Positions 10,074 through 56,561 of a stretch of 64,000 bases of DNA are shown here, one piece after another. The stretch lies in the IMG/VR virus record IMGVR_UViG_3300028886_000053. The stretch is one strand, 5' to 3'. The notes under the pieces were generated by a model. The model had not been told where the DNA came from. It was given only the letters and a program-made list of their open reading frames with translations, and made no database searches. Source of the DNA: a virus (lineage: Duplodnaviria > Heunggongvirae > Uroviricota > Caudoviricetes). Position 1 is the first letter of the stretch; each line of letters starts with the position of its first letter. A program made the position numbers and the translations under genes.

Positions 10074-10215
10074 AAATGCGAAATGCCTTGGCCTTCAGCA
10101 TTTCTATGCTTTTTTCTTGTCCTGTAAAAACTTTTAACAGCAGGGAATACATTGTTTTAAGAAATGGTATTCATCACTCTTTATATATATATTATATCAA
10201 AAATTTTTGAAAATA

Positions 10216-10596
10216 TCAATTAATAGCATATTTTTCAAGAAATTCGTCGGGATTATTAAAAAACATATCTTCTAATTCATTAAAATCCAAAGTAGGAAGT
10301 TTATTTTCATTCAACTGATGAATATCCCAAGCAGTATCTTCTCCATAAACTTCATCACGAATATTATCTACTTCTTCTCCACCTTCATCATAATCAATAT
10401 CTTCCCATTCACACTGGTCTTTAACGTCATCTTCAAGAGCATCAACAATATCTCCGTATTCATTGATTACTTCATAAGACATTTCCAATCCCAATGCTTC
10501 AGCTTCTTCTTCTGTGCCTTCAAAGATTTCATATCTTATCATTCCATGAAGTCCACCATAAAATTCATCATATCCTTTAATTGCCCAAATTGCCAT
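10216..10596 (-). CDS. highly acidic early protein (candidate DNA-mimic anti-restriction, Ocr/ArdA-like)
   Basis: ORF track, 126 aa, dominated by D/E runs (EDDVKDQCEWEDIDYDEGGEEVDNIRDEVYGED). It has its own consensus promoter at about 10600-10650 on the minus strand. Confidence 0.45.
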   Translation of the reverse strand: MAIWAIKGYDEFYGGLHGMIRYEIFEGTEEEAEALGLEMSYEVINEYGDIVDALEDDVKDQCEWEDIDYDEGGEEVDNIRDEVYGEDTAWDIHQLNENKLPTLDFNELEDMFFNNPDEFLEKYAIN

Positions 10597-10653
10597 ATAA
10601 ATTCCTTTCTTTTCTTTATTATGATATTATTATATCAAAAATTTTTAAAAACG

Positions 10654-10962
10654 TCAAAAAACTTCTGTCCAACCATAATGTTTTAAAAGTTGACGAATAT
10701 TATTAGCACCAACAGGATTCATTGAATGAATACGAAATTTACCAAAATAATTATATTCAACCAACCATTTGGCAATATCATAACCTGTTTTTCCTTCTCC
10801 TAAATCATGGTCAAAATCAATAACAAGAGAAGGAGCATAAGGAATTGTGGTCAAGGCGGCAATCGCTTCATCATACGATTTAACCCAGAGTGCATCCGGA
10901 ATAAGCGGCTGCCGTATGTCATCAATATAAATATAAATTTCTTTTTCTTTTTCCTTTTTCAT
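10654..10962 (-). CDS. hypothetical protein (DxD / DHD acidic motifs)
   Basis: ORF track, 102 aa. Confidence 0.4.
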   Translation of the reverse strand: MKKEKEKEIYIYIDDIRQPLIPDALWVKSYDEAIAALTTIPYAPSLVIDFDHDLGEGKTGYDIAKWLVEYNYFGKFRIHSMNPVGANNIRQLLKHYGWTEVF

Positions 10963-11010
10963 GGTATTATTATATCAAAAATTTTATAAAAAAACAAATA
11001 AAAATTGTCC

Positions 11011-11304
11011 TCACTTCATTATTGTTGAAGTTTTCCAATGTCTATAAAAAGATTTTAAAGTGGGATAACGACGAAGCCAATAAACATCATCTTTATTTGC
11101 TTCATACCATTCCTTTGCTTCATGCCAAGGCCAATAACTTATATAATCATGTATATCATAAGGTTCAAAAACTCGTCTATAAGATTTGCCACTAGGAACA
11201 TCATTTGTTCTACGAACCTTTTTATTGGCTTCTCGCTTTGCAAATTTAACTCTAGTAGGTCCACCGTCTTTAGTATAAGGATGTTTTTTATAAGAACGTG
11301 ACAT
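11011..11304 (-). CDS. hypothetical basic protein
   Basis: ORF track, 97 aa, K/R-rich. Confidence 0.4.
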   Translation of the reverse strand: MSRSYKKHPYTKDGGPTRVKFAKREANKKVRRTNDVPSGKSYRRVFEPYDIHDYISYWPWHEAKEWYEANKDDVYWLRRYPTLKSFYRHWKTSTIMK

Positions 11305-11337
11305 AATATTTTTCTCCTTTAGTTAAAAATACAACCA

Positions 11338-11417
11338 CATTAGGAATCGAACCTAAACTACTCCCTGCGGGGCGTGCTACGCGCTTAAATTAACTTCCAT
11401 TACACTATGTGGCTAGT
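11338..11417 (-). tRNA. tRNA-like gene with long variable region (type II-like). Anticodon unresolved.
   Basis: Acceptor AGCCACA/TGTGGTT. T-arm TTAGGTTCGATTCCTAA. The internal GC-rich segment does not give an unambiguous anticodon stem. Confidence 0.3.
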
Positions 11418-11706
11418 ACACCCCCAAGGAGTCGAACCTTGTGTACCTGGGTATAAGCCAGACCCCCAATACCGTCGAGGACGAGGTGCTTATGAATCCC
11501 AATATTTAGGATTCACATAATAATTATTTAAATATCCATTATAAAGAATTTTTCCACAATATTTACATCTCCAAGCACTTCGATAAATATGAGAAGTAGA
11601 AGTCTGATTAATTTTATCCCCATAAATATTACGAATAAATTCTATATTATTATGTTTGCAAAATAATTGTTTAATTTTTTTCATATTTATATAATTTGCT
11701 TTAAAT

Positions 11707-37841: not shown

Positions 37842-38496
37842 GTCTCGCTCCCTTCCGCTTCTACAAACCGTGTCTGACTAGGGTAGATATTAAATGTGCA
37901 ATTACGGCAGTTTTTGATCGTTACCTGTGCGGGAAAGCCGTCATAGGCATCTGCAAGTTTTTCGACCTGCTCCGTTGCCTCTTCCATGCCCTCTGTTTCT
38001 ACTCTGAGTGTGTATTTACCTTCCATCTGTCTCTCCTTCTGCTTATCTCAATTTCCACCAAATCGCCACCAATATTGCGATATTAGCCACTGAACACGTT
38101 GCGGTTATAAATATATTGATTTCTGTTGCGCTCATGTCTCTCCTTCCGCTTCCGAATTTCCTTTCTTAATCGTAGGCCGCCCTAACCAAAACCCACAAAC
38201 ACTTCGCTAATTGCTTATAAAACACATCCACCTCTTACATCTGCCATAATACCATTCATAAAAGATACAATTATCACAGCACTTTGTTTTATTATCTCTC
38301 TTTAAGCTGTTCATTAACTGCCTCCATTTGTTCTTCCCCAAATGAAATCTCAACCAATGGACAATCTTTATACTGACTCTTAAAGTCAGGATAATTATTA
38401 CTGTACATCAATTTACAATCATACGTAATCTTATCCATAAATGGACATTTATAACATTCCTTAGGTTTATCCCTTGGTACTATATAACTCATTTTA

Positions 38497-38973
38497 TCAC
38501 TTCTCCCCCTCCTTATAAAATTCCGGCAATGGCATCCACCAATCAACAAAACTTATACCTGCTCTTTCTAAACTTGGTGTTATTATCCATCCTTTTTCAT
38601 CAGTCCATCTATGCAATTTTCCATATGATGCCACAAATATTACTCCTGCTAATGTTTTACACAAAACATCTTTATCTTCCTCTGGTAGTTTCTCTGTCAC
38701 TGGTATCCAACGCGATTCAGCATCCTCTTTCTTCTCTGCCCATGAACAAAAATCAAGTTCGCCAATCGGGCTATGGTCAAACTTCATACAAATCCTACTG
38801 TCACCACTTGCAAATTTACACTCACGACACCGTATGATTTCGGGCTGTGCGGATGGCAAGTTTCTAATCTTGATTTCTAACGCTATTTGGTCGGCTCTGA
38901 ACTCAAAACAATTAAAGTTGTCAATTACATCAATCGCCGCCTGTCTGCTAATCGTGTCATCCATCCTGTTCAC
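38497..38973 (-). CDS. hypothetical protein
   Basis: ORF track, 158 aa. Confidence 0.45.
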   Translation of the reverse strand: MNRMDDTISRQAAIDVIDNFNCFEFRADQIALEIKIRNLPSAQPEIIRCRECKFASGDSRICMKFDHSPIGELDFCSWAEKKEDAESRWIPVTEKLPEEDKDVLCKTLAGVIFVASYGKLHRWTDEKGWIITPSLERAGISFVDWWMPLPEFYKEGEK

Positions 38974-39229
38974 CTCTCATGTCTGCTCCGCAGTTCGGAC
39001 AAAAATTTGGCTCATAATCTAACTCAATATAATCTATCGAATGACAGAAATCATCAACTGCAACCCCGCATTTGGAACAAGCAATACCGCACTGTGTTTC
39101 TGAGCCTATCCATTTTCCTACTATCCTTTTTGACTCCGTGTCTGCTCTCCCCTGCATACATCCTCTTTCATATGCTTCTTCTTTATCTTTTCTATAAGCT
39201 CTATCTGCTTCTAATGTTTCGTTAATCAT
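38957..39229 (-). CDS. hypothetical zinc-ribbon protein
   Basis: ORF track, 90 aa. CGIACSKCG...CPNCG. Confidence 0.45.
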
Positions 39230-39426
39230 TCAATCACCTTTTCATATGTCTTCTCAAAAATATCAGGCTTGCAAGGATACTGTTCACCGTTTACCCCTGT
39301 AATGATATAGTCACCGACAGAAGCGTGCATTGTTCCTTCAAGTGTCTCAATATCCATTTCTTTATTAGTTTGATACGCTTCAATAATCACTGGTTTCTTT
39401 CTATATTTAGCCATTTCTCCACCTCT

Positions 39427-39837
39427 TTAAAAATATCTCCAATTTCCAGGTATAACAAGAGGACAAGATGAGATCTTATTTATCCTATCCCAATAATCTC
39501 TTGCAAATTCTTGATTAATCTTATTTAATCTTTCAATCTCTTCTTTTAATTCTTTATTCTCATCAACCAGTTGACAAATTTTTTCATTCTTTTTCCCAAC
39601 CACGAGTTTTTCATTAATAAGATTTAATTCTTCTTGAATTGATTCAAATTCTTCTTTATTAGTATTTTTTACTTTAGTAATATCATATCCTAAATTATCT
39701 AATTTAGTCTCAATCTTTTCTATATCATATTTAAATTCCTTAAAATATTTTTTTACTGCCTTCTCAATACAATATCTAAAAAAACAAAAACAAATAATTA
39801 ATATAACTATAAAACCTATCCAATCTACTATTTTCAT
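39427..39837 (-). CDS. membrane-anchored coiled-coil protein
   Basis: ORF track, 136 aa. N-terminal TM helix, then heptad-like K/E-rich sequence. Confidence 0.45.
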   Translation of the reverse strand: MKIVDWIGFIVILIICFCFFRYCIEKAVKKYFKEFKYDIEKIETKLDNLGYDITKVKNTNKEEFESIQEELNLINEKLVVGKKNEKICQLVDENKELKEEIERLNKINQEFARDYWDRINKISSCPLVIPGNWRYF

Positions 39838-40309
39838 TTTTTACTCCTTTCCCCAAAAAGAAACCCCAAAAGCAATAAGTATAACCCCAAATAATAAAAA
39901 AATAAAAGAACCATTTTGGGTATACAAATATAAATCTATACAACCTAATATAAAATCCCAAATTGCTAAAATATAATTCATGCGGCCGGCGGTCACACGA
40001 CGATTTATCTAGTTAAATCTAGATTTAATCGGGCTCCCGCATCTCCTTTCTATTTTCTACTCTTGTTTATCACTTCGTCATTTCATCAATTTCTTTATCA
40101 GTTGGTATTACACCTACAATACCGTCAAATAATCTTGTTAAAACAAGATACCAGAAAACTGCAATTGTAAGTACACCAGAGATACACATGGTTACAAGTA
40201 AAACTGATAATACAATATTAGTAATTGATTCCATATTTATTTTCCTTTCTATCTTATTTCTCTTTTGTTAATAACGTACTTTTTTTAAAGGCAAATGAGG
40301 AGAAGAAAC

Positions 40310-40681
40310 CTATTTTGCAGGATTTTCTTTCTTTTGATATTTTCCACAAATCTTTTTATTATTAGCAAACATACTTTTTCTTTCTTCACAATAAAAAATA
40401 GATGGGGCAGAGTAATATTTACAAGATTTACATGTTTTCTTTTCTTTTGACTCTAGTTTAGTAACTGTTTCAGCATTAATATTGCCAGTAGCATTTCCAT
40501 TAATAATAACTACCTGGTCTGCTTTTATATTTCCTACTACATTGCCATATACAATTACAGTTTGAGCCTTAATATTACTATTAATATTACCACGGCTTTT
40601 TAAAATATATGTTCCATCTTTAATATCTCTCTCAATTCCTTCAATAGGAATACCATAAAGCATTGGAATTAAATCTACCAT
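40310..40681 (-). CDS. bactofilin-like beta-helix repeat protein with C-terminal Cys4 motif
   Basis: ORF track, 123 aa. Repeats GN[IV]..... (VIVYGNVVGNIKADQVVIINGNATGNINAE), then CKSCKYY...CEERK. Confidence 0.4.
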   Translation of the reverse strand: MVDLIPMLYGIPIEGIERDIKDGTYILKSRGNINSNIKAQTVIVYGNVVGNIKADQVVIINGNATGNINAETVTKLESKEKKTCKSCKYYSAPSIFYCEERKSMFANNKKICGKYQKKENPAK

Positions 40682-40761
40682 TTCTTTTCTCCTTTTCCAT
40701 TTCTATAAATATAATACCATTATTTTTTTAAAAAATCAAATAAAAATCTTTTGGACGAAAC

Positions 40762-40790
40762 TTGACAACCAAAAATTTTTTTGGTATAAT
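40762..40790 (+). promoter_or_regulatory. promoter at the start of the plus-strand late operon (TTGACA-N17-TGGTATAAT, extended -10)
   Basis: TTGACA at 40762-67, TATAAT at 40785-90. SD AGGAG and ATG 40824 follow. Confidence 0.6.
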
Positions 40791-40823
40791 AAGACATAAG
40801 GATGAGAGAAAGGAGTTCCTATA

Positions 40824-42044
40824 ATGCAAGAAAAAGAAGATAACGTTATTCCTACTGAAGATGACGCTGTAGATACACAAGAGTTAAAACTTGATTATAC
40901 GATCTAGTCACCAGTGGAACGTAATGAATTAGTAAAAAAGATTGTAGAATCCTTACCTCCCTAGAAGTTAACGAATAGATACTTAGAAATATTAGCGGAT
41001 TATATTATATTTGCAAAAACGAAAGAATAGAGAAAAAAACAAGAGTCTATTAATACTGAAAATAGAATGATAACAATAAATAAACGGTAGACTTCATTTT
41101 AGGGACTAGTAGGAAAATTTGAAAATGGAGAAGATGGAGTATATAACTTATTTACAGAAGATAAGAACATTATCTTTACTCCAAAGATTTCAATTACAGA
41201 AGAAGATTTGGCGGAGATTCCAGCCTTACGAGAATTACGTGCAGCTATTGAAGAGGTTTAGAAACTTTAGAAAACAGCTCGTGGTAAACGTAAATATCTT
41301 CTTAAAAAACAAATTATTTAGATGCGGCAAGATCAGTATGTTATTAAAACTTCTTATAAACAACCGATCTTTTGTCTTAATGCCGTAAAAAATTTCAGTT
41401 CAATGAGTTTTGAAGATAACATTTCTATATCTCCAGATGGAAAAATAAAAGATAAGAGTTTAATATCTTTTATAAATCCTAAACATATCTCTGCTCTATT
41501 GAGAAATTATTCCCGATTAAAAGAAGATTGTTATGGAAAATTTTATACTGATGGATATTATATGATGGAAGTTTTAGATGAATTAGTGGACAAAGCTTTA
41601 AAAGAAAAATATCCTCTTTATTATAGTTTATTGATATATAAAATAGATGGGAAGTCTAATTTAGAAATTCAAAAACTATTAGAAGAAGAACATGGAATAA
41701 GACATTCAGTTGAATATATTTCTTCTCTTTGGCGAAATAAAATTCCAAAATTAATTGCAGAACAGGCCGAAATTGATTTTTTACATTGGTATTATTTAGA
41801 AAAAGAAAAAGGGAAATGGAAAAAATGTTCTCGATGTGGAGAAGTAAAATTAGCGCATAATAAATTTTTTTCTAAAAATAATTCTAGCAAAGATGGATTT
41901 TATTCAATCTGTAAATAGTGCAGAAATAAAAAGAAACGCATAACTCCTAAACCAGAAATTATAAAATATAGAGAAATTGAAAACGGAGTTGTAGTAAAGG
42001 AGGAGATATGGCGAAAAAGAAATGTAGCAAATGTTAGCGAGTAA
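40824..42044 (+). CDS. hypothetical late protein, TAG-recoded (about 9 in-frame TAG), C-terminal CxxC...CxxC zinc ribbon, ends TAA
   Basis: Single frame from ATG 40824 (frame 0) through standard-code fragment 41322..41918 to TAA at 42042-44. The C-terminus is CSRCGEVKLAHNKFFSKNNSSKDGFYSICK-Q-CRNKKKR. Confidence 0.5.
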
Positions 42045-43225
42045 TGGAGGATTTAAAATTTTATTCTAAAAAAAACGGAGATAAATTTGATATGTGCAAG
42101 TAGTGTTTAACTATGCACGTTGATAATTATAATGAAGATACTTTTTTATGGATAATAGAATAGGCAGATCTTCCTTGGGTACCTAGCGAATGGAACGCTA
42201 TTAGATAGAAATAGTATGCCAAAAAAGGCAGAAAAATGAATGGAATGAGTGTTGTCGGAAAATATTTTTCCAAAATGAGGTTAAATCAATGGAAGAAATA
42301 TAATTGGGCAACGAGTGCGGAAGCACAAGAGGAAGCTAATCTTAACAAGTAGTTTAAAGAAGAGCAACAAAAACAATTAGAGTAGAAGTTAAAAGAAGAT
42401 TTTGAAAAGGGTTAGATTACTTAGTCACAATATCGAACTTTAGTTTCTTCTAGTTTTCAGAAGTAGCATTAGTATATGATGCGGCCGGCCGGTTAGGAAG
42501 AGGACCCGGTTGGTAAAGATAATGCCTTTAGATAGGAATATTTCTTATCGGAAGAGGATTTACCCGATCCCGCAGCTGAATTAACAAAAGAAGATAAACA
42601 ATATTTGGCAATGAAATGGGGTCGAAATTATAAACCTAGTCAATGGTTATTGCTTGAAACCAAGTACACCGAAATGATGAATTCATTTGACATTCAGGAT
42701 GCAGATAGTAAAAATACATTAATGTTTATTTGTAAAACATATTTAAAAATGGATGAAGCAATTGATATAGGTGACGTTGAAAGTTATCAAAAACTATCCC
42801 GTGTCTATGATCAGTTACGTAAGTCTATGAAAGTAACGGCCGCGCAAAAGAAAGAAGAGAATAATTAGTTTATAGATTCAGTTGGCTAGTTAGTTGCCTT
42901 TTGTTAGAAACATGGACATGTGATACCTGAATTTTAGATAAAAGCTCCTCATGATATAGTTGATAAAGTCATAAATGATATGAAGGGTTATAATAGATCT
43001 TTGATTTATGAAGACAAAGCCCTTGCTAGACAAATCGAAGATTATATTAAAGAAGCGCGTGCGGCAGCTGCTAGAAAGAAAGACCGAGAATAGGCTAAGA
43101 AGAGAGGCTAGGATTATTATACAATTACAGATAAAGATATTTTAGATTATAAAGACTTCCTTCATAGTGAAAAAATATGGACAGAAAAAGAAATGAAGGG
43201 AGAGGATAACAATGAGTCTTAGTAA
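42008..43225 (+). CDS. late protein with N-terminal zinc ribbon, TAG-recoded (about 19 in-frame TAG). Possible terminase small subunit by position.
   Basis: ATG 42008 (SD AAGGAGGAG), MAKKKCSKC-Q-RVMEDL...DMCK-Q-CLTMHVD. The frame includes fragment 42605..42868 and ends TAG-TAA at 43220-25. It immediately precedes terL. Confidence 0.4.
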
Positions 43226-43560
43226 TATTTTAGATCAATATATTTAGCATGACACTAAAAAACAAGGTTTATCTGAAGAAAGGCTTCTTGATCAATTAGA
43301 CAATCTAAGATATTTAATTAGTTTTTTTAGAAAATATCCTGACCTTTTGGTAGACTATATGAAAGGACCAGATAGTACCTTCCATTTTTATTTTTATCAA
43401 AGAGTTTTCCTTAGAATAGTTATGCGGCACCGATACGTTTATGCAACGTTTCCGCGTGCTTACTCTAAATCATTTTTGTCAATGATGGCATTAATGTTGA
43501 GATGTATATTATATCCTGGGGCGCAATTATTTGTTACTACTGGTGGTAAAAGTATTATTT
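43212..43560 (+). CDS. terL: terminase large subunit, exon 1 (ATPase N-terminus with P-loop-like ATFPRAYSKS)
   Basis: Frame from ATG 43212 includes fragment 43347..43565 (MKGPDSTFHFYFYQRVF...ATFPRAYSKSFLSMMALM...VTTGG). The exon end is approximate. Confidence 0.55.
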
Positions 43561-44597
43561 TATAATTTTATAAAAAAGGGAGGAGCATTATGAGTGCAAA
43601 AAACGTCCTATATAATTTTGAAACGATTGATACAGAGGAAAAAGCTTATTGGTTAGGTTTTTTATATGCAGATGGTTCAGTTGGGTCTAAAGATGACCGA
43701 ATTGAATTAGGTTTAGCAGAAAGAGATTTTCATCATATTGAAAAATTTAGAGATTTTATTGGTATAAATAATAAAATTTCTTATCGAGAAAAAACAAAAT
43801 CATATCGTTACGCTTTTAAAAGTCAAAATTGTAAACAAGATTTAATTAGACAAGGATGTGTTCCTAAAAAATCTTTAGTTTTAAAATATCCTACTTATGA
43901 GCAAGTTCCTAAAGAATTAAGTAGACATTTTATTAGAGGGTATTTTGATGGAGATGGATGGTTTACAAACACAGAATCTTGTTTTCAAGTGGGAATTATT
44001 GGAACAGAAGATTTTATTAGGGGATTCCTTAATAATATAGATGATATAAATAAAGATAATAAAATATTTATTTGTCATCGAGAAGAAGGAGCTAAAAGAT
44101 ATGTTTTTGGAGCTTATCAAGATGTTTTAAATTTTTTAAATTGGATTTATCAAGATGCAACAATTTATCTTGATAGAAAATATGAACATTATTTAGATTT
44201 TATAAATAATGGAAGTAAATATCATAAAAATATAAAATAAAATTTGCCGTATAATATAGAAATATATTATATGATTATCGCGGAATTAAGCGGGAAGGCT
44301 GAAATGCTAATCTGAACCGAAGGCTAGTTAAAAAACTGGTCAGGGGCAACGCGTAGGAGGTGAAAAGATATAATCCTCCCAAGAGGCCGCGACACAAAGA
44401 TTTATAGAATCTTTTGAGATTATCTCACCAATAATCAAACCTAACGTTAAAACGAGGGTGAAAATGTACGCTGAGCTTACATGAATTAAAAAATGTAAGA
44501 ATTAAAGGATAAAAAACCTTTAAGATAACAAAACTGAAATAGCAGGCGGCTAGTATTACCGTGGCAAAGATAGAATAGATATGTAAGTTAATACCAG
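43561..44597 (+). other. group I intron 1 in terL carrying a LAGLIDADG homing endonuclease ORF
   Basis: An intact standard-code ORF is followed by a GC-rich structured core (gggaaggctgaaatgc...gtcaggggcaacgcgtaggagg) in an AT-rich gene. The terL frame resumes at about 44598. Confidence 0.5.
43590..44240 (+). CDS. LAGLIDADG homing endonuclease (two-motif, intron-encoded)
   Basis: ORF track, 216 aa. Motifs LGFLYADGSV and FIRGYFDGDGWF. No TAG. Confidence 0.75.
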   Translation: MSAKNVLYNFETIDTEEKAYWLGFLYADGSVGSKDDRIELGLAERDFHHIEKFRDFIGINNKISYREKTKSYRYAFKSQNCKQDLIRQGCVPKKSLVLKYPTYEQVPKELSRHFIRGYFDGDGWFTNTESCFQVGIIGTEDFIRGFLNNIDDINKDNKIFICHREEGAKRYVFGAYQDVLNFLNWIYQDATIYLDRKYEHYLDFINNGSKYHKNIK

Positions 44598-44880
44598 CTT
44601 TAAGTAATTAGATAAACTGGAATCGTGGTGTATCTAAAAAATCTAAGGATGATGTTAATTATGTATTTAAAAATGGTTCCGTTATAAATATCTTGGCTGC
44701 TAAAGAAAGCAGTAGAGGACAAAGACGTACTGGTGGATTAATGGAAGAATGTGTTTTAATTGACCAGACGGCTTTAAACGAAATTATTATTCCTACTACA
44801 AACGTAGATAGATTACTACCAGATGGAACACGACATAAAGAATAGATTATTAATAAGTCACAGATTTACATTAACTTTTT
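44598..44880 (+). CDS. terL: terminase large subunit, exon 2
   Basis: Frame reads ...VFKNGSVINILAAKESSRGQRRTGGLMEECVLIDQTALNEIIIPTTNVDRLLPDGTRHKE-Q-IINKSQIYINFFEQS with one TAG. Boundaries approximate. Confidence 0.45.
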
Positions 44881-45949
44881 TGAACAAAGCGTTATAAAAA
44901 TATGTGCTTAAAAATTATATATAATAGAACAAAAAAAGGAGGTTCTATTATGTATTATATTTATAAAATAGAAAATTTACAAAATCATAAAAAATATATT
45001 GGATTAACTAATAATATAGCAAGAAGAAGAGCTAGACATTTTACTGATTTAAGATGTAATCGACATGATAATGGTTTTCTTCAAAAAGAATTTAATATTT
45101 ATGGAGAAAATAATTTTTCTTTTGAAAAAATTTTTGAAGGAGATATTACAGAAAAAGAAATAGGAGAGAAAGAAAAAGAGTTTATTAAATTATATGATAG
45201 TTATAGAAATGGGTATAATCAAAATGAAGGTGGAAATTTTGGACCGTCTAATGGTGGAAGTCATTTAACGCAATCGGATATTTATAATATTTGTTCTGCA
45301 TTAGAATTTTGTTCTAGACCAGGAGGCGTGCTATCAGATATGTTTGAAGTTTCTTTAACTACTATTTCTAGAATAAAACAAGAAGTAAACCATAATCAAT
45401 ATATAAATGAATATAAAAATATGTCTTTAGAAGATCGAAAAGCTATATATAAAATATTTTGTGAAAGTTCTAATTTTTATGAAAAGAAAATTAAACAAAC
45501 TATTATAAAGTCTAAAAGACAGCTTACGAAACAGCAGGTTTTTATGATTTTATATAATTTTGAAAATAAAGTTGTTACTTACAAAAAAATGGCAGAAATT
45601 GTTGGAGTAGCAAGCACATATACTTTAGATTGTATAAAAAAAGGATTAACCTATAAAGATTATTCTTATGAATATAATCAACTTAATAACGAAGAAAAAC
45701 AAAAAATAGTGTCGTTATTCAGTAATGAATAATTGTAAGCCATTGAATTGCTGGGAACCCCTTATTAAAAGGGCAATCAGCAGCCAAGCTCTTTATAAGA
45801 GAAGGTTCAACGACTATCCTGAAAGGGAGTACACTCAAGCGAGTGGAAGCGGTGGCCCCCTACTTGAAAAAGAGGGTGAAGATATAGTCTACTCTGCATG
45901 TATATATAAAGATGCAGCAGTTCATAAGAGAACGCATATAGTTTAGCGA
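44881..45949 (+). other. group I intron 2 in terL carrying a GIY-YIG homing endonuclease ORF
   Basis: A HEG ORF is followed by a structured segment (gggaaccccttattaaaagggc...gagtggaagcggtggccccc). The terL frame resumes near 45950. Confidence 0.45.
44950..45732 (+). CDS. GIY-YIG homing endonuclease (intron-encoded)
   Basis: ORF track 44902..45732. The likely start is ATG 44950 after SD AAAGGAGG. Motif YYIYKIENLQNHKKYIGLTNN...R...H...E. No TAG. Confidence 0.7.
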   Translation: MYYIYKIENLQNHKKYIGLTNNIARRRARHFTDLRCNRHDNGFLQKEFNIYGENNFSFEKIFEGDITEKEIGEKEKEFIKLYDSYRNGYNQNEGGNFGPSNGGSHLTQSDIYNICSALEFCSRPGGVLSDMFEVSLTTISRIKQEVNHNQYINEYKNMSLEDRKAIYKIFCESSNFYEKKIKQTIIKSKRQLTKQQVFMILYNFENKVVTYKKMAEIVGVASTYTLDCIKKGLTYKDYSYEYNQLNNEEKQKIVSLFSNE

Positions 45950-47030
45950 ACTATATGGAATACAAGGAACAACGGCGGGTTGGAAGAATTCATTTGCGTA
46001 TGACAAATTAATAGAACTTTTAATTAGAAGTTTAATATAGCCTGATGAAGTTATGATAATGGGAGGAACTTATGAGACTCCTATTATTGAAGGATTGTTA
46101 AATGAAGACTTTGTATAGCAGTTAAAAATGGCTGGCACTTTCAATGAAGATTCATTTGATAGATAGTATAGAAGTATATGGTCGGGCGATGCAGAAAATG
46201 CGTTCTTCTCTGCCTAGAAATTTGACAAGTATAGAACACTTAGACAACCGTAGTACGAATATAGCGGCCGCACCAGTAAAAATGCTTACTATGTCATTGG
46301 AGTTGATGTAGGTCGTATTGGATGTACAACCTAGGCCTGTATTTTTAAGGTGACGCCGCAACCTCAAGGAGTTGCATTGAAGTCTCTTGTAAATATATAT
46401 ACTTATGAGGCATAGCATTTTGAATAGCAAGCTATAAATATTAAGCAACTGTTTTATAGATATAAAGCTAGATCAATTGCATTAGATACTAATGGTCTTG
46501 GAATAGGTCTTTTAGACTTTATGGTAAAGGCCCAGGAGACACCAGATGGATAGTATCTTCCACCTTTTGGTATTTAGAATGATGATTAGGGTATTTATAA
46601 GAAATATTTTAAAGGTGTAACAGATGTTCAAAAAGATGCTATTTTCCAAATTAAAGCTAATGCTCCTATTAATACATAGGCATATTCATTTGCTCAGACT
46701 CAAATGTCAAGTGGGAAGATTAAATTTTTAATTGATGAAGCAGAAGCAAAAGCTAAGTTAATGGAAACTAAACAAGGTCAAAACATGACGCCTGATAAGA
46801 GAAATGAGTATTTGAAGCCTTTTGTTCTTACTACTATTTTAAGAGAACAAACATTGAATCTCGTTGAAGATAACGAAGGTGTTAATATTATTTTAAAACA
46901 AGAGAATAGAGGTATTAAAAAGGATAAATTCTCTTCTTTTGTTTATGGATTATATTATATTAAACAATAGGAAGATAGAAGAAAAAAGAGAAAAGGAAGA
47001 GATATTAGTAAACTTCTCTTATTTTCTTGA
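45950..47030 (+). CDS. terL: terminase large subunit, exon 3 (RNase H-like nuclease domain), about 14 in-frame TAG
   Basis: Frame contains YYVIGVDVGRIG, DTNGLGIGLLD and KFLIDEAEAKAKLMETK, and includes fragment 46704..46970. If the TAG at 46968 is read as sense, the protein ends at TGA 47028-30. Confidence 0.55.
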
Positions 47031-47103
47031 GGACATTTTTTGAAAAGAAAAAATTATATTTTTTTAAATATAAATGTAAAACAGAAAGGAGAAATATATT
47101 TTT

Positions 47104-47463
47104 ATGAGAAGTTCACGAGCAGAAATAAAGATAGAAGAAATTTTGTCAAATGCAGGTCTTAACTTTAAAGAAGAGTATAGTTTTCCTGACTTAATAGGAC
47201 AGGGAGGTCATGCCTTAAGGTTTGACTTTGCTGTCTTTGATGATGATGATGAATTGGAATTTTTGATTTAGTATCAGGGAATCCAACATTATAAAGCAAA
47301 AAGTATCTTTGGCGGCGTTTCTGGGCTAAATAAGCAACAGTATTATGATATGCAGAAACGTTAGTATTGTAAGAAGCATGGGATTAAATTAATCTTAATT
47401 CCGTATTGGGACGAGAATTTAATTACATATGATTACATTATGGAAAAAGCGGATATTTTTTGA
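47104..47463 (+). CDS. DUF559-type (Vsr/restriction-endonuclease-like) nuclease, 2 in-frame TAG. One TAG sits at the conserved IE.DG glutamate.
   Basis: MRSSRAEIKIEEIL...YSFPDLIGQGGHALRFDFAVFDDDDELEFLI-TAG-YQGIQHY...YDMQKR-TAG-YCKKHGIKLILIPYWD matches the DUF559 pattern (ILDFYCPE..LAIELDGSQHY...YDQRR..WL...GI.VLRF). Confidence 0.55.
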
Positions 47464-47475
47464 TGAAAGGTTAAG

Positions 47476-49134
47476 GTGACTTCTTTGATAAATAGAGCAG
47501 CAGAAATAAGAAAACAAAATTTAATGCTAGAAGGCACCGGCAATGGGAGATTAGATTATTCAAAAATAAGAGTTGGAGCTAAAACACTTGAAGATGCAAT
47601 TTTAAATATTGGAGAATATAAAAGAATCAATCCTATTCTTGGTGATAAAAAAGAAGTATTAATGGCGATTAATACTGGTGATGTAGAAAGAATGAGATAG
47701 ATTTCTAATTTCTTTTATAAGACTAGTGGTATCTATGCTAGATTATGTAGATATATGGCATATTTATATAAATATGATTGGTTTATTACTCCATATATTG
47801 AAAATTGTGAAGGTTTACTTGATCAGGATAGCGGCCTGGGTGACGTCGGGGCAGGCTAGACTTAGGCAGATAATAAAGCCCGCAAAAAACAATTTGCTAA
47901 TTTCTTTAAAGTATTAAAATATTTTGAAGCATTTTAGGTAAAAAGATTTTGTGGTGAAGTTGCTCTAAAAGTCATCAGACATGGTTGTTACTATGGATAT
48001 TTAATTCCTAGACCAAATAAAATGACTATTCAAGAGTTGCCTATTAGATACTGTCGTACTCGTTATAAGGTTGACAATAGACCAGTTGTTTAGTTTAATA
48101 TGCACTATTTTGATGATCATTTCCATGATGAGAGACAGCGGCAAGCAATTTTAAAATTGTTCCCGCCAGAGTTTAAAAAGGGATATAATTTATATCGTAA
48201 AGGTAAATTAATGCCAACTTTTCCTGGTGATACTCCAGGATGGTATTTATTAGACCCTAAGAGTACAATTAAATTTAATCTTAATGATTAGGATTATCCA
48301 GCTTTTATTTCTGTTATCCCTGCTATTATCGACTTAGATAATGCTAAAGATTTAGATAGAAAGAAAATGGCTCAAAAGTTAATGAAAATTATTATTCAAA
48401 AAATGCCATTAGATAAAAATGGTGATTTAGTATTTGATATTGATGAAGTTGGAGAATTTCATAATAATGCAGTTAAAATGCTTACAAGAGCGATAGGAGT
48501 AGATGTTTTAACTACTTTTGCGGACGTTGATGTCGCTGATATGTCAGATCGAGGTACTACAACTACTGTAGATGAATTAGCAAAGGTAGAAAGAGGAGTT
48601 TATAATGAAGCTGGTGTTTCACAGCAACAATTTAATAGTGATAATAATACTGCTTTAAATAATTCTATTCTTAATGATGAAGCATCTATGTATAATCTTT
48701 TAGTACAATTTGAGTCGTTTTTAAATTTAATGCTTGAACAATTTAACAAATCTCCAAAGAAATGTTATTATCAAGCACAGTTTTTAACAACTACTATCTA
48801 TAATTATAAAGATTTAGCAAAGTTGTATAAAGAACAGGCGCAAATGGGATACAACAAAATGTTACCTCAGGTAGCACTTGGACAAACTCAAAGCTCAGTA
48901 TTAGCTAATGCGTACTTTGAAAATGATATATTAGATCTTGTCCGTGTATTTGTTCCTCCGCTTACTTCTAATACAATGAACGCTGAAGCACTACAAGCGC
49001 GGTCTGCGGCTACACGCGGAGGCTCGGGTCAAGCGGGAAATACTCCAGGTCAATCTGGAGAAGGGGCCGGCCGCCCTTAGAAATAGGATAATCAAAAAAG
49101 TGAAAAAACATTACAGAATAGAGAAAGTATGTAA
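47476..49134 (+). CDS. portal protein, TAG-recoded (about 8 in-frame TAG), GTG start, ends TAA
   Basis: One frame links fragments 47476..47700, 48100..48291 and 48367..49080, then continues through two TAGs to TAA 49132-34. Its position between terL and the scaffold/capsid genes supports the call. Confidence 0.55.
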
Positions 49135-49145
49135 GGGGGTAAAAT

Positions 49146-50534
49146 ATGAGTTTAGCGCATAAAAGTGTAGCGACGATAAAAAGTCCAGAGTTCATTAATC
49201 TTACTCCTCTTGATATTAATCCCTTAATGTCCGCATGTGAAATTAAAGTTTTTTATATTGGACAAAACCGTAATAAGAGTTTTATTTCTAAATAGGTTGC
49301 TACTTAGATGGCAAAGACTCTTAGAGGTGCTCCTATTGTTGGGTATTATAAACCAGATAAAGAGGATTTTACAGATCATGGTGAAGAAATAACGATTGAT
49401 GGGGATGGTGTTCATTTTAAAAATAACACTAAGCCATATGGATTTGTAGCTCCAGATGCGAAAGTCTGGTTTAAAGATTTTGAAGAGGAAGATGATTTTG
49501 GAAATTCCATAATTAGAACTTATCTAATGACCACTGGATATTTGTGGGAAGGTCAATTTGAAGAAGCTAAAAAAGTTTTTGAAGATGATGGAAAACCTCA
49601 TTCAATGGAATTAGATGAAAAAAGTTTAAAAGGACATTGGGCAACAAACCCAAATAATAATATGGAATTTTTTATAATTAATGACGCAATATTTGAGAAA
49701 CTCTGTATTTTAGGAGATGAGGTTGAACCTTGTTTCTAGGGTAGTGGTGTAACTGCTCCAGAGGTTAGTACAACCTTTTCTCTTGATGATAATTTTAAGC
49801 ATACTCTGTTCACTATGATGGAAGAATTAAAGTATGCTTTAGAAGGAGGCAATACTATGGCAAAAGTAGCTGAAGCTTCAGTAAATGAGACTGTTACTAC
49901 TATAGAACCTGAAGTAACAACAGAATTTACTGAGAATCAAGTTAATGAGAATGAGTCTTCATCTAGTGAGCAAGCGCCTGCTTCAGAATTTAAAAAGGAT
50001 GATGAAGAGGACAAAAAAGAAAAAGAAAATCCTTCTGAAAATGAGGATGATAAGAAGGATGAAGACAATGGCGGAGGTGCTTCTGATTCAGATGATGACT
50101 CTGCTAATGAAGAAAAGAAAGATGAAGAAGATAAGAAGAAGAAATTCACTGTCCTTGAACAGGAATATAATGAGTTGCAAACTAGTTATACTTCTTTGAA
50201 GGAAGAAGTTGAAGAACTAAGAACTTTCAAGAAAAAAATAGAGGACAAAGAGAAGGACGACCTTATTAAAGATTTCTATATGCTTTCTGATGAAGATAAG
50301 AAAGATGTTATTGAACATAAGAGTGAATATTCATTAGAAGATATTAAATCTAAATTAGCAGTGATTTGCTTTGAAAAGAAGGTCAATTTTAATTTAGACA
50401 CTTCTTCTGAAAATGAAGAATCAACAGTAGAAGAGGATGAAAATCCTGTTACTACTTTTGATATTAAGGCAACTGAAGATTCAACAGTTCCTGAATGGGT
50501 TAAGGCGGTTGAATCTGCAATGAATAGATATTAA
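49146..50534 (+). CDS. probable prohead protease/scaffolding protein (single frame, 3 in-frame TAG). The acidic C-terminal half is scaffold-like.
   Basis: Strong SD AAGGGGG before ATG 49146. The frame joins fragments 49308..49739 and 49815..50534. The C-terminal 240 aa is D/E/K-rich and coiled-coil. It could alternatively be two genes. Confidence 0.4.
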
Positions 50535-50551
50535 TTAGGAGGATACTTAAT

Positions 50552-51172
50552 ATGGCAAAAGAAAGAATCGGCTATGGACAAGTAGAACGCCAACACATGG
50601 CTGCTCCACATAACGGTCAAATCTATGCTCAACTTCCTGCTCTTAATGCTAACGGTACTCCAATCGCTCAGCTTGAGAATGGACAGTTTTTAAAATATGA
50701 TTATGCAAATGGTAAGGCTGGAGTTGGAACATCTGGTGATGGCAAAGAATGGTTCCTTGTTTATAATGAAGAAAAGTTATATGACGAGAGATACCAAAAT
50801 CATAAAGATTTTGCTATGAAGGCAGCAGATATGTCTGATGGTACTATCTATCCTAGACTTTTAAGAACCTTTGTTGGTGATATTTTCACAACAAATACTT
50901 TTAAGGGTCCTAAGGGTACTGTAACAGATAAAGAAGGTAAGATTGATGATATTCCGGATCTTGCTATTGGTGATTATGTAGTAATTGGTGATGATGGTTG
51001 GTTAGTAAAAGGTACGGGTACAGGAACTGATGGAGTAAATCCTCCAACTGGTACTGGTATTGTTTTCCAGGTTATTCCTCATTTTACACAAATGGGTATG
51101 GCGGCTGCTGATAGACCAGCTTATACATTACCTGATGGACAATGGGCTGTGAAGCTTCAAAGAATACGCTGA
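50552..51172 (+). CDS. head decoration / minor capsid protein (no TAG)
   Basis: ORF track, 206 aa. SD AGGAGG. Immediately upstream of the major capsid protein. Confidence 0.4.
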   Translation: MAKERIGYGQVERQHMAAPHNGQIYAQLPALNANGTPIAQLENGQFLKYDYANGKAGVGTSGDGKEWFLVYNEEKLYDERYQNHKDFAMKAADMSDGTIYPRLLRTFVGDIFTTNTFKGPKGTVTDKEGKIDDIPDLAIGDYVVIGDDGWLVKGTGTGTDGVNPPTGTGIVFQVIPHFTQMGMAAADRPAYTLPDGQWAVKLQRIR

Positions 51173-51188
51173 TAAGGAGGAAATAACG

Positions 51189-52307
51189 ATGGCTTTAGAT
51201 AGAAATCAACTTTTAGCATTAGCTAAGGCTACTGCACGTGCTTCATTAAATCCTTCAACTGCGTTCGCTTGGGGCGATAAGAAATTAACATTTGAAGCTC
51301 TTAATGAAGTTTTTCAAAAAGAAATGAATGAACTTGCTGGTACATACGCTTTGTACCGTGAGAATAAGAATACAATTTTCAGACTGATTGAAGAAGGTCT
51401 TGATGAAATCCTTCCTGCAAAGGTTATGCAGAATTATGGTCAGTTTGCTGATACTAAGACCTATGCACAAGGTGACAAGCCTGTGTTCCGTGTAAGAGTT
51501 AGTGAATACTCTAAGAAGAGAGCAAAGAGCTTTGTAACAAGAGTAGGTCTTGCTGGTAGATATGAGACATTCAAGCTTGATGGATACACAATGGAAGTCA
51601 ACATGGCTGCATACGGCGGAGCAGCTGAAATCGGCTTTGAGGAATTCCTTGATGGCCGTATTACAATGGCTGATGTTTATAATTTAGTTCTTGAAGGTCT
51701 TGATGAAGTAGTTTATAAAGAAATTGCTAAGGCAATGGAATCATTAGCAGACAGTACAAGTATTCCTAAAGCTAATAAGGTTAAGGGAAATAAATGGAAT
51801 GAAACTGAATTTGACCGTTTAGTTGCTACTGCTGATGTTTATGGCAAGAGTACAATTTATTGTACTTATGAGTTTGCAGCAACTATTCGCCCTGCAAATT
51901 CTGGTGACCTTTCTGATGGTATGAAGGAAGATTTATGGAATAATGGTTCTTTCAAGAACTATAAGGGACATACTATTATTGTTCTTCCTCAGAGCTTTGA
52001 GGATGCTAATAACTTAGTCAAAGTTATGGACCCTTCCATTGCTTGGATTATTCCTACTGGAGCAGAAAAACCTGTTAAGGTTGCTTTCGAAGGAAGCTCT
52101 GCTGTTAGAGAAGTGGAGAATGATGATTGGTCAAGAGAAATCCAGACTTATAAGAAAATGGGAGTTGCAGTTTATAATATAAATCCTGGTATTTGCGTAT
52201 TTAAGAATACTTCTCTTACAAAGGATAATTTACCTAGACTTACTGGCGCTAATGCTGCAACTTTTGATGCAAATACAAATTGGTACACACTTCCTGACAA
52301 TTATTAA
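51189..52307 (+). CDS. major capsid protein (HK97-fold-like), no TAG codons
   Basis: ORF track, 372 aa. SD AAGGAGG. Sits between scaffold and head-tail genes and is followed by a strong terminator. Confidence 0.65.
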   Translation: MALDRNQLLALAKATARASLNPSTAFAWGDKKLTFEALNEVFQKEMNELAGTYALYRENKNTIFRLIEEGLDEILPAKVMQNYGQFADTKTYAQGDKPVFRVRVSEYSKKRAKSFVTRVGLAGRYETFKLDGYTMEVNMAAYGGAAEIGFEEFLDGRITMADVYNLVLEGLDEVVYKEIAKAMESLADSTSIPKANKVKGNKWNETEFDRLVATADVYGKSTIYCTYEFAATIRPANSGDLSDGMKEDLWNNGSFKNYKGHTIIVLPQSFEDANNLVKVMDPSIAWIIPTGAEKPVKVAFEGSSAVREVENDDWSREIQTYKKMGVAVYNINPGICVFKNTSLTKDNLPRLTGANAATFDANTNWYTLPDNY

Positions 52308-52339
52308 TTTTATTAAGTAATATATTAAAAAAGAACTAT

Positions 52340-52388
52340 AAGGGCTTAAATATTATATAGGGTATAATGTTTAAGCCCTTTTTTTACT
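52340..52388 (+). terminator. rho-independent terminator after the major capsid gene
   Basis: Hairpin AAGGGCTTAAA...TTTAAGCCCTT followed by TTTTTTT. Confidence 0.65.
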
Positions 52389-52410
52389 AGAGATAAAAGG
52401 AGTTTTTATA

Positions 52411-52967
52411 ATGGATAGAAATACAATAATTAAAATTTGTAATAGAGATGACGCGGCAGTATTTTATGATATTCCAGAAATGAATGGATTACATAGAGTT
52501 TTTCAGCCAAATGAAGTAAAAGAAGTTACGTTAGGAGAACTTATTAAATTATCTTATGAACCAGGTGGAATGGATTTACTTAGAAATAATTTCATTCTCA
52601 ATAATAAAGAAGCAATTAATATGATTTTAGGAGAAGTTGAACCTGAATATAATTATACTCCAGTTGATATTAAAAATTTATTATTAAATGGCTCTTTAGA
52701 TGAACTTCTTGATTGTTTAGATTTTGCTCCAGAAGGAGTAATTGAAATTTTAAAAGATTTGGCAGTTGAGTTACCTTTAAATGATGTAGCTAAAAGAGAA
52801 GCTATTTTAAATAAAACTGGTTTTAATGTAACTAATGCAATTGAAATTAAAAAAGAGGTTTAGGCTGATATAGAAAAACCTGCGGCCGGTCCTATTAAGA
52901 GACGAGTTACAAAAAAGGCTTAGTCTAGTCCAGCCGAGGAAACCAAAGGCCGCCGCGTGATTAAATA
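52411..52967 (+). CDS. hypothetical head protein (1 TAG, ends TAA)
   Basis: ORF track 52411..52863 continues through a TAG to TAA near 52965. Confidence 0.4.
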
Positions 52968-52983
52968 ATAAATTAGGAGGTGT

Positions 52984-53538
52984 ATGATGGATGAGATGAA
53001 TTGTACACCTTTCTCTGTTGTTTATGACAGTTTTCTTTCAAAAATTACAGATGATATGTATATGGAATTAACTCCTTAGGATACTGATAAGATTTTATAG
53101 GAATTATTAATTTCTGCTTTACCTAAATTTGAATTTCCAAGACAGAATCTTTAGTATGAAGAAATGCCGATAGAAGGGGAATTTGATGAAATAGGAGAAC
53201 CATTTACAACACAATGTTTTGTAAATAAATTAACTCAATAGGAAGTAAATATAATTGCAACTTATATGATTGTAGAATGGTTAGGGCAGCAATTAGCTAC
53301 TATTGAAAATACTCGTATGAAATATAGCGGGAGTGATTTTAAATTCACCTCTCAGGCTAACCATATGCAAAAAATTCTACAATTAAAGAAAGATTACGAG
53401 AGAGAGGGATTCCACTTACAGAGACTATATAAAAGACGTAAGAGAGATCCTGAAAGTGGAATTTATAAATCAACAATTAGCTCTATAATGGAGAAACAAC
53501 CTAGAGGAGGAACTGGCGAATGGAACAAATGGTTTTAA
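52984..53538 (+). CDS. head-tail connector/adaptor-like protein, TAG-recoded (4 TAG)
   Basis: Frame from ATG 52984 includes fragment 53266..53538 and ends TAA. Confidence 0.4.
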
Positions 53539-53849
53539 CTTTAGGTATTTCTATTAGCAAGAGCGCAATAGATAATAATTTAAAAAGAATTATAAATCAA
53601 GTTTATAAATTACTTCCTTTAAGAGAAGAAGGAAAAAATTGGGAAAAACCGTTAGAAACTTTAATCGAGGAACTTGCGGGAATGGCTGATTTAATAGATG
53701 GCTAGGAAGAATTATTCTTTTCTATATTATGTAAAATGAAAGGATTGCTTAGTTTAGCTAGTGAACTTGATATGGTTACTTATCGAAGAACTATATTAGA
53801 ACTTCTAAGTTTACTAAGTGAGTTAAAAAGATATGTCTGCTAGAGATAA
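53520..53849 (+). CDS. hypothetical neck protein (2 TAG), ends TAA
   Basis: Frame 0 from ATG 53520 to TAA 53847-49. Confidence 0.35.
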
Positions 53850-53850
53850 T

Positions 53851-55137
53851 ATGCGGAAACGGTATCGGGCCGATTTAAATAAAAATCCTAGCCATTCATA
53901 TGATTTCGGTTCCGGTTTAGATAAAATGAGTAAACGGTTAAGTGTTTTTGGTGGTGAAGACCAATGGACGAGAATGAGATAGGATAAACTAAGAAGTTTG
54001 AAAAAAGCTTTATTAGCATCTTATCAAAGAGCAATCGTTCAAAAATATGATGTTAAAAAAGATAGTTTAGCAAATAATATTATTTCTATTATTACTTTAC
54101 TCCAAGATAATCAAGAGTTAAGTGATAATCAGAATAATATTTTAAAAACATTAGAAGATTAGTATACGAGTTTAGCTGTTATAGATGATAAATATTCAGC
54201 TAGGTATATTCAGAGCTTAGAAGAAATTGTTGATTCTCTTACTTCCACCGCTCCTATGTTTAAAGCTCTGATTAATCATGATAAATTAAAAGTGGATTAT
54301 GAAGATAAGATCCTTTCGATCCCCTTTAGGGAAGCACCGGAAGATAGTGAAGAATAGATAGATACTGATTTTCATAATGGGACTGTCTTTAAATGGGTCC
54401 ATGGTAATAAAGAAGAATGGACGCCAGACACATATTGGATTGTCTATATGCAGTATTCTGAAGAAACTGCTTATTTTAGAGCGGAAATTCGCAAAGCCGA
54501 TGAATAGATTTAGATTATTGTTATAGACGAAGATGGTAATGAAAATGCAGTTAGTTATAGAGGATGGATGACGGGACCAAATGAAACTACAGCTCTTTGG
54601 AATACAAAGCGTGGTGTTGTTTGGAACGATATGAATTATACCAAGTTATTATATATAACAAAAGATGAAGATACTTTAGCATATTTTCAACGCTTTGATA
54701 GGATAATAATTAATGGTAAACCCTGGGAAGTGCAAGCCTATAATGAAAATTATAGTACTAGTAAAACAGGGGATTTTAGTTCAGGTATTATAAGAGTGGC
54801 GTTAAAAGAAACATATACTTCTGCGGATCAGTTCGTTAAGGAAGTGAAAAATGCGGAAGCCGCTCAGATCTAGGCGGAGGCTGCCTATGATGCAGAACAT
54901 ACCTAGGCTAGAATTGATGGACCGGCCGCCGCACATCCTTACGATATATTAATATATAAAGCTAAAAATTATGAATAGCCGCAAGACTGGTTCGTTTCTG
55001 ATACCTCTCTTGTTAAAGTATTAGAGTATAATGAAGATACTTTAAAACTTGAGGTTATTGCTAAAAAGGCTAATAAAGAAGGTTTCCAAATTGGATATGG
55101 ATAGAATATTATTCAGATTCCTATTGAGCCTCTATGA
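53851..55137 (+). CDS. virion morphogenesis protein (about 429 codons, about 9 in-frame TAG), ends TGA
   Basis: Frame 1 from ATG 53851 includes fragment 54568..54873 and ends TGA 55135-37. Confidence 0.4.
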
Positions 55138-55154
55138 GATAAAAGGAGTTTATT

Positions 55155-55798
55155 ATGCGTTATGATTTAATTTCAACAAAAAAGATATTTTCTCCCTTTT
55201 TCTCTTGTCCATAGGACATTAATAAATTTTTAGAAACACTTTTTATAAAGAACCGTCCTTATAGTAATATATTGAAGCGGTTGTTAATAATTAATTCTCC
55301 CGATTGTTTAGATCCGGCAAAGGATGAAGAGTACAATGCTATTGTTGATAAGTATACAGTAAAAAGGATGATCGAAGAAGGATATATTCGATTAAATCCT
55401 AAAATTGCTCGTGGAACGCATGAAGAAATTAAAAGTTATATTATTATAACTCAAGATAACTTTTCTCAAAATAGACGTTCTTCACAATATCGAGATTATA
55501 TAATTAATATGGATATTGTTTGTTATAATGATGCATGGGTATTAAATGAATTAAAAGTTCGTCCTTTAATGATATGTGGGTATATCGACGGTATTTTAAA
55601 TAGTCTTTCTGATGAAACTAAAGATTCTTCTAAAACATTACCATCAAGAATTAAATTAACTGGTATTGGTTATTATAAATTCTTAGGATGTAATCTTGTA
55701 GTTTTGAACGAAGATATTTCAATGTATACGCTATCTTATTTGGGATAGCATTTTACAGAAGACTTGGGAGAAGAACAGGTTGATTGAGAAAATTGCTT
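55155..55798 (+). CDS. hypothetical tail/neck protein (SD AAAAGGAG, 2 TAG)
   Basis: Frame 0 from ATG 55155 joins fragment 55272..55748 and continues to TGA near 55796. Confidence 0.4.
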
Positions 55799-56561
55799 TA
55801 TTATCAAAACGAGATATACCCTATGAAGCAGCGTAGCTTATTATTCATCAACCTACTATAAAGTAGATTTCTTATATTGGAGAAAATAATTTTTTTAAAG
55901 GATGTCAATATTTGAATTTTTCTAAAAATAGTCTTTAGGTAAAGGACAAAATTAATTTAGAAAAAGTTTCAGATTTTGAAATATTAATGACGATATTAAA
56001 GAATAAAGATTCAAATATTTAGGAAGCTAAAATTTGTTTACAAGAAGTTTTTTTATTAATACTTCCAGATTATAAAGTAGTTTTTCTCCCTACTTGTATA
56101 TTATTTTCACGTAAAACCTAGGATGGTTTTGAAGAACATTCTTTAACGAAAGAAAATTTCGAGGGTTTTAAAAATATTGTGTCAGAAATGTTTTGTTTGA
56201 AATATATACAGGGTGAGAGTGGACAAGGCGGTTATAATCCTGGAGGACCTCAGGCACGAGCATTAGTAAAGAAATTTCAAGAAAGACAGGCTAAATTAGC
56301 TAAACTAAAAGGAAAGACTGATAAGACTTCTATTGAAGTTTTATATCGTTATATTTCTGTGTTGGCAGTAGGTTAGCATAAAGATATAAATTAGTTAATG
56401 AATTATTCTTTATATCAATTAGTAGATTAGTTTCGGCGTTTTAAAATGGCAGATGATTATGAAACTGTTTTTAGATTAAAATTAGCTGGAGCTAAAGATG
56501 TTGAATCCGTCCCTCATTGGATGGGTGATTTAGATGACAAATTATAAGGAGGATACACACA

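Follow-up and report, generated by a model that had tools for sequence, protein, structure and literature searches.

In the td intron of phage T4, the open reading frame (ORF) lies in the P6 loop. In late genes of TAG-recoded crAss-like gut phages, self-splicing introns and stop-codon recoding reportedly occur together. Group I introns have been described in the terL (terminase large subunit) and pol genes of Bastillevirinae/Herelleviridae (Nucleic Acids Res 2025, PMC11878797). In Bastillevirinae, terL can contain one to three group I introns, chiefly IA-like; the majority have a homing endonuclease ORF in a loop (HNH, GIY-YIG or LAGLIDADG), and they appear as partial Rfam matches separated by long ORF-bearing loops (PMC11878797). 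Here, we analyzed the terL gene in a 64,000-nt stretch of IMG/VR virus record IMGVR_UViG_3300028886_000053 (hereafter the window, to which all positions refer). Very probably, this terL is a single gene into which two mobile group I introns have inserted, with a homing endonuclease gene of a different type in each. Because multiple endonuclease-bearing group I introns in phage terL have been published (PMC11878797), the arrangement is already known in kind, and the case adds to a known pattern, the piling up of such introns in the conserved ATPase motifs of terL. The locus differs from those of Bastillevirinae in its phage, which is an uncultured gut phage of about 145 kb that is recoded at TAG, and in its SPbeta-like neighbor genes (YonG_N, YonD_N). 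It also differs in two features specific to this phage, the insertion sites and the combination of LAGLIDADG and GIY-YIG enzymes in one gene. Unlike the crAss-like phages, the window is not a Crassvirales genome, and its TAG appears to stand for Glu, not Gln.

The plus strand was translated with TAG taken as a sense codon. This translation confirmed the claim of the original prediction that the terL frame is split in three: a terminase-like frame lies in three pieces, with two standard-code ORFs between them (Table 1). The exons sum to 336 + 335 + 1063 = 1734 nt, or 577 codons plus stop, which equals the length of the uninterrupted terL gene of L127, the 145-kb contig with the closest terL homolog. 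The exon frames had been predicted to reconnect over both segments, and they do so exactly. The exons are 92.7% nucleotide-identical to the L127 gene, and the two contigs are colinear at 93-96% in the flanks, with alignment gaps only at 43550/44537 and 44875/45968. MT836163.1 (L001), a standard-code relative found by blastn of phage records, likewise has an entire, uninterrupted terL, and its alignment breaks at identical points. A protein search returned hundreds of full-length terL homologs of 577-583 aa, many of them among the best 120. In intron-less homologs, terL is one continuous gene and not a set of fragment genes. Intron 1 is missing from L127, L128, L129 and L001, and intron 2 is missing from the intron-less relatives; together with the presence of the intron 1 family at the same terL site in more distant contigs (L046 and L064, see below), this is the pattern that would be expected of homing introns. 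Exon 2 is 90% identical to L127 against 93-96% in the flanks, a signal too weak to claim co-conversion tracts near the insertion sites.

Exon limits were taken from DNA alignment to the intron-less relatives. The three-exon layout of the original prediction stood, but its approximate coordinates were off by 9-61 nt: the end of exon 1 was moved from 43560 to 43547, exon 2 from 44598-44880 to 44537-44871, and the start of exon 3 from 45950 to 45968. At junction 1, blastn to MT836163.1 and L127 ends at 43550 with a 3-nt AAA ambiguity. Only one of the four possible placements, 43547, gives both a U at -1 (U43547) and a terminal intron G (G44536), and the ambiguity was resolved solely by assuming this group I rule. 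Junction 2 is unambiguous in the alignments to L127 and L001: U44871 stands at -1, and the intron ends in G45967. Because the U43547/G44536 placement is possible and U44871/G45967 is fixed, both junctions fit the group I splice-site rule (U before the 5' site, G ending the intron).

The same layout could be read as free-standing endonuclease genes between three terL fragment genes, the fragments being translated separately and assembling without splicing. In annotations of related phages, such pieces are often listed as distinct coding sequences, as in Staphylococcus phage S-CoN_Ph1, in which 'terminase large subunit' appears twice, and the exon 1 frame would stop at a TAA six codons beyond the junction. 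Separate fragment genes are nonetheless very unlikely, because the 5' end of exon 2 offers neither a start codon nor a ribosome-binding site, and exon 3 starts in mid-codon. Conserved ribozyme cores, moreover, adjoin the exon ends and obey the U/G rule, and the relatives have the continuous gene described above. Without splicing-aware and TAG-aware annotation, the essential terL gets called as fragments.

By phage-specific profiles, the joined protein is probably TerL, with matches to phrog_2 'terminase large subunit' (6.8e-20) and phrog_5909 (1e-6); two uncharacterized PHROGs match its N- and C-terminal halves. The DNA of exon 1 is 69% similar to a terL annotated in an Enterococcus Herelleviridae phage. 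Walker A-like, Walker B-like and VIGVDVG motifs were spotted by eye only.

The core of intron 2 matches RF00028 (Intron_gpI) over the full model (1-253) at 90.2 bits (E 7e-23), above the gathering score of 50 bits, and an insertion sits between the P7 5' strand and P3', as in IA introns. When the entire 64-kb window was scanned with Rfam at the gathering threshold, no intron was reported; E-value mode did report intron 2, and the 90-bit match was missed at whole-window scale through speed filters. The P1 pairing was read from the sequence: the proposed guide UAGUGU (45707-45712), just before P2, would pair with ACAU/UA (44868-44873; the slash marks the splice site), U.G wobble included. Because this guide stands just before P2 and pairs over the 5' splice site, the ORF would sit in the P1 loop. 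Intron 2 resembles T4 td with I-TevI in that a phage gene is host to a group I intron of IA type whose ORF specifies a GIY-YIG endonuclease; unlike in td, the ORF is upstream of the guide sequence and P2, and the host gene is another one. The longest ORF spans 44902-45732; translation probably begins at the ATG at 44950, which follows AAAGGAGG. The GIY-YIG assignment made in the original prediction agrees with matches to Pfam GIY-YIG (38.1 bits, cut-off 22.6), TIGR01453 'group I intron endonuclease' (57.2 bits, cut-off 56.05) and the I-TevI catalytic domain (PDB 1mk0, 1.3e-7), by which the product is an I-TevI-like enzyme.

Intron 1 has no Rfam match, which at first seemed to go halfway towards contradicting the original prediction; a group I core was found there by comparative analysis instead. 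Briefly, 43 distinct full-length cores, drawn from the IMG/VR contigs of its RNA family (see below), were aligned with MAFFT, and pairs were counted under a hand-written group I model. In the model, a GNRA loop caps P2, P4-P5 have the canonical context AAUU..GCGGGAA..UAAUC, P7 reads GCRUA/UAYGC, a P7.1 hairpin stands between P7 and P3', and there is a P3/P7 pseudoknot. Model partners paired in 88.5% of cells, versus 62.0% with shuffled partners (0 of 500 shuffles reached the observed value) and 32-43% with partners slid by 1-3 columns. Compensatory changes were found in 56 of 63 model pairs. P7 was paired in 100%, with two positions covarying AU/GC; its G-C and C-G pairs were invariant in 43/43 sequences (columns 213/436 and 214/435). 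A single unpaired C or A precedes the invariant G on the 5' side, and the pair beyond it covaries A-U/G-C at 28:15. A bulged base beside an invariant P7 G-C pair corresponds to the guanosine-binding-site arrangement. Covariation in the 43 relatives thus backs P2 to P9.1 and the P3/P7 pseudoknot. Within the family, L071 scores 54.2 bits with RF00028, above the gathering score, and L072 reaches 45.3; the Rfam alignment of L071 has P3, P4, P6, P7, the P7.1 insertion, P8 and P9 laid out as in the hand model.

In the window, a single guide of intron 1 pairs with both exon ends. GCCG pairs with UGGU of exon 1 (43544-43547) to form P1, with U43547.G44246 at the splice site plus three more pairs, and AUUU (44242-44245) pairs with AAAU of exon 2 (44537-44540) to form P10. 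Single-sequence folding of the core gave a stable structure, and the stretch after the ORF had z = -3.9 versus shuffled sequences; such folding is unable to show a pseudoknot and mispaired P4-P7. The G+C content is 0.35-0.385 at 44200-44500 and 0.42-0.43 at 45700-46000, versus 0.20-0.29 within the ORFs, in line with the GC-rich structured RNA that had been noticed after each ORF.

The ORF of intron 1 holds both motifs quoted in the original prediction for a LAGLIDADG enzyme, AYWLGFLYADGSV and HFIRGYFDGDGWF, with LGFLYADGS and IRGYFDGDG in one chain. It matches Pfam LAGLIDADG_3 at 28.9 bits (cut-off 22.5), covering the second motif only, and phrog_4645 'endonuclease' at 4e-48; against PDB, the match was weak (2dch, E 0.19). 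A strong Shine-Dalgarno sequence, GGGAGGAG, lies 5 nt upstream. LAGLIDADG enzymes occur in inteins too, and the window is probably a metagenome assembly, so that insertions of this kind could be thought of as inteins or as an assembly chimera. An intein is ruled out by the TAA stop and Shine-Dalgarno sequence between exon 1 and the LAGLIDADG ORF and by the non-coding structured RNA that follows, and base-precise insertions with group I boundaries are unlike mis-assembly; either explanation is extremely improbable.

Several observations weigh against reading terL as a single gene with two group I introns. The joined protein has no match in Pfam, NCBIfam or PDB sequence searches, and its identity rests on the PHROG matches and the DNA similarity to annotated terminase genes. 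The window copy of intron 1 has no Rfam match at E<=10; its short P1 consists of 4 bp, of which two are G.U, and most relatives have no counterpart of the two extra hairpins that it bears between P3' and P8. In intron 2, P1 is also short (6 bp), and no P10 is evident. Splicing is predicted from sequence features. The first segment could be seen as decayed or protein-dependent, with intron 2 active and terL either a pseudogene or in need of a maturase or host factor. The missing Rfam match, the short, wobble-rich P1 and the hairpins at 44395-44426, rare among relatives, would suit this, and LAGLIDADG proteins may serve as maturases in organellar group I introns. However, because the window copy retains all 34 invariant family columns and every model helix, and because terL is an essential gene with undamaged exons whose 18 TAG codons are readable, a decayed intron 1 is quite unlikely. 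The hairpins recur in L003 and L066 and therefore mark a subtype, not decay; L099 has an extended P8 only. Two group I introns with different endonucleases, as originally interpreted, remain supported by RF00028, the covariation, L071 and the continuous homologs.

With two group I introns, terL would be transcribed as a single pre-mRNA in which each intron would fold as a group I ribozyme, its guide forming P1 by pairing with the 3'-terminal bases of the preceding exon, with U.G at the cleavage site. Free guanosine bound in P7 would attack the 5' splice site; the terminal G of the intron would then take the place of the guanosine in P7, and the exons would be ligated into the 577-codon terL mRNA. 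In both introns the endonuclease gene precedes the catalytic core, probably within the P1 loop, and would be expressed from its own ribosome-binding site. In a mixed infection, the endonuclease would cut an intron-less terL allele, and repair from the intron-bearing copy would spread the intron by homing.

Table 1. Positions of the terL exons, the two introns with their RNA elements and ORFs, and two tRNAs in the window.
Feature	Position	Strand	Remarks
terL, whole	43212-47030	+	three exons
terL exon 1	43212..43547	+	ATG 43212; Walker A-like ATFPRAYSKS; 3' end ...GGU GGU
Intron 1	43548..44536	+	989 nt; group I, IA-like; Rfam-undetected
LAGLIDADG ORF	43590..44240	+	216 aa; two motifs; no TAG; in intron 1 upstream of core
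Intron 1 internal guide sequence AUUU/GCCG	44242..44249	+	read from sequence
Intron 1 catalytic core	44250..44536	+	hand-written helix model; terminal G 44536
Intron 1 P2	44250-58/44263-71	+	
Intron 1 P3	44278-83/44387-92	+	
Intron 1 P4	44291-94/44311-14	+	
Intron 1 P5	44297-99/44306-08	+	
Intron 1 P6	44322-29/44334-41	+	
Intron 1 P7	44349+44351-55/44467-72	+	
Intron 1 P7.1	44356-60/44375-79	+	
Intron 1 extra hairpins	44395-44426	+	
Intron 1 P8	44439-41/44457-59	+	
Intron 1 P9	44476-82/44493-99	+	
Intron 1 P9.1	44502-08/44517-23	+	
terL exon 2	44537..44871	+	Walker B-like region GGLMEECVLID; 5' end without start codon
Intron 2	44872..45967	+	1096 nt; group I, IA-like, with insertion between P7 and P3'
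GIY-YIG ORF	44950..45732	+	260 aa; no TAG; 3' end overlaps guide sequence and P2
Intron 2 catalytic core	45675..45910	+	Rfam Intron_gpI match; P9 and P9.1 hairpins run on to 45967
terL exon 3	45968..47030	+	begins A ACA ACG = ..I TTAGW; putative nuclease domain; TGA stop 47028-47030
Suppressor tRNA (CUA)	1721-1793	-	tRNA prediction
tRNA-Glu(CUC)	8102-8173	-	tRNA prediction

The core family of intron 1 was found, by a 23-nt motif from its 3' end, in at least 120 IMG/VR contigs. DNA-similar blocks split four genes in cultured phages: recD of Bacillus phage PJN02, yomI of Clostridium phage c-st (a copy without ORF), the ATPase gene of crAss-like phage cr6_1, and terL of Staphylococcus Sextaecvirus (e.g., S-CoN_Ph1, OR354824.1). 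None of these copies is annotated as a group I intron, and five relatives tested against Rfam had no group I match. They are like intron 1 by RNA family and differ from it in host genes and sites, and in having the ORF in the P5 loop (Staphylococcus) or no ORF (c-st). Common elements of the family are GCRUAG...CCAMGAG...GAAAAURUAYGC...GGAUAAAAARCC...GAUAACA, and a UUUGCC guide element precedes P2 in most members (44242-44249 in the window; alignment columns 9-15). Where the 5' splice site could be read, it was GGU/AAA or GGU/AAG, except for GGU/GAA in c-st. The target codons are mostly Gly-Lys pairs, including the P-loop of a RecD-like helicase, which hints that the family prefers GK-coding DNA in NTPase genes. 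The guide UUUGCC suits the target GGU/AAA, a Gly-Lys codon pair, and this may explain the recurrence in P-loop NTPase genes. Since Rfam's single group I model misses this very common phage intron family and fast filters lost the 90-bit match of intron 2, intron counts in phage surveys are underestimates.

In the ORF-less intron of c-st (L003) and the Staphylococcus terL intron (L006), the guide element stands 8-10 nt after the 5' splice site; by comparison with these relatives, the LAGLIDADG ORF of the window would therefore occupy the P1 loop. The difference in ORF position, P1 loop here but P5 loop in the Staphylococcus phage, suggests that endonucleases invaded the same ribozyme family independently. 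The family also occurs at the same terL codon, K/EQAA, in the more distant contigs L046 and L064, and other terL families carry it at other sites in the ATPase domain. In L064 (IMG/VR 3300043104_000020), a related terL at 22-4036 (65-78% aa identity) apparently has at least three interruptions, after roughly 84, 113 and 197 aa; the interruption near aa 113 has the site and RNA family of intron 1.

The terL frame has 18 TAG codons in 577, and the two endonuclease ORFs have none in 476, where about 15 would be expected at the terL rate. The mobile endonuclease genes thus keep to the standard code within a host gene that is itself recoded; having no TAG, they could be translated in the standard code of the host, independent of the suppressor. 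In late genes of the window (38000-56000; 18 kb) aligned with standard-code MT836163.1, TAG stands opposite Glu 35 times, Asp and Ala 9 times each, Ser 6 times and Gln once; genuine Gln codons in these alignments stand opposite Gln 71 times. Among pairs of terL relatives, TAG was exchanged with GAA/GAG at 13-19 positions per pair, except for 4 in the closest pair (window and L127), with CAA/CAG at 0-3, and CAR with GAR at 0-2. Homologs translated by code 15 have 'Q' at up to 12 of 28 Glu positions of the window, versus E at 0-3 of 25 Gln positions, an asymmetry predicted by TAG as Glu and not by TAG as Gln. The suppressor tRNA (CUA) shares C1-G72, G2.U71, C3-G70, A73, U11-A24 and a 4-nt variable loop with tRNA-Glu(CUC). 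By overall similarity among the tRNAs of the window, tRNA-Glu is not among the closest to the CUA tRNA, so the case from the tRNA is limited to a few identity-type features. On balance, TAG probably encodes glutamate in the window lineage, not glutamine as in phage code 15, although with clearly less assurance than attaches to the introns. The term 'TAG-recoded' in the original prediction thus holds in that TAG is read as sense, with a residue that looks like Glu in place of the usual Gln. The literature searched for a TAG-to-Glu phage code held only TAG-to-Gln claims. If true, this stop-codon reassignment would be one unreported for phages in that literature and would matter more than the introns. 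phAss-1 (PMC10607447), a TAG-recoded gut phage of similar size, was not among the DNA matches of the window.

A dense array of about 24 tRNA genes occupies 363-11489 on the minus strand. The region also holds a tmRNA (2279-2561; tag peptide GGTENLYCD, ARAGORN) and a ROOL RNA (6109-6707, 296.8 bits). At 528-600 (-), ARAGORN predicts a tRNA, Leu/Pro ambiguous, whose anticodon loop is 8 nt long and whose anticodon has four bases (tagg); it could be frameshift-suppressor-like or a mis-folded prediction. Directly 3' of terL, a small gene (47104-47466, +) encodes 119 aa with two TAG codons and is kept in L001, L127, L128 and L129. Its product, which starts MRSSRAEIKIEEILSNAGLNFKEEYSFPDL...RFDFAV, has no NCBIfam match; on visual inspection it looks similar to endonucleases of the Vsr / PD-(D/E)XK type. 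In L127, the genes on either side of terL (613-3014 and 6851-7734) carry Pfam YonG_N and YonD_N, which points to kinship with SPbeta-like phages of Bacillota.

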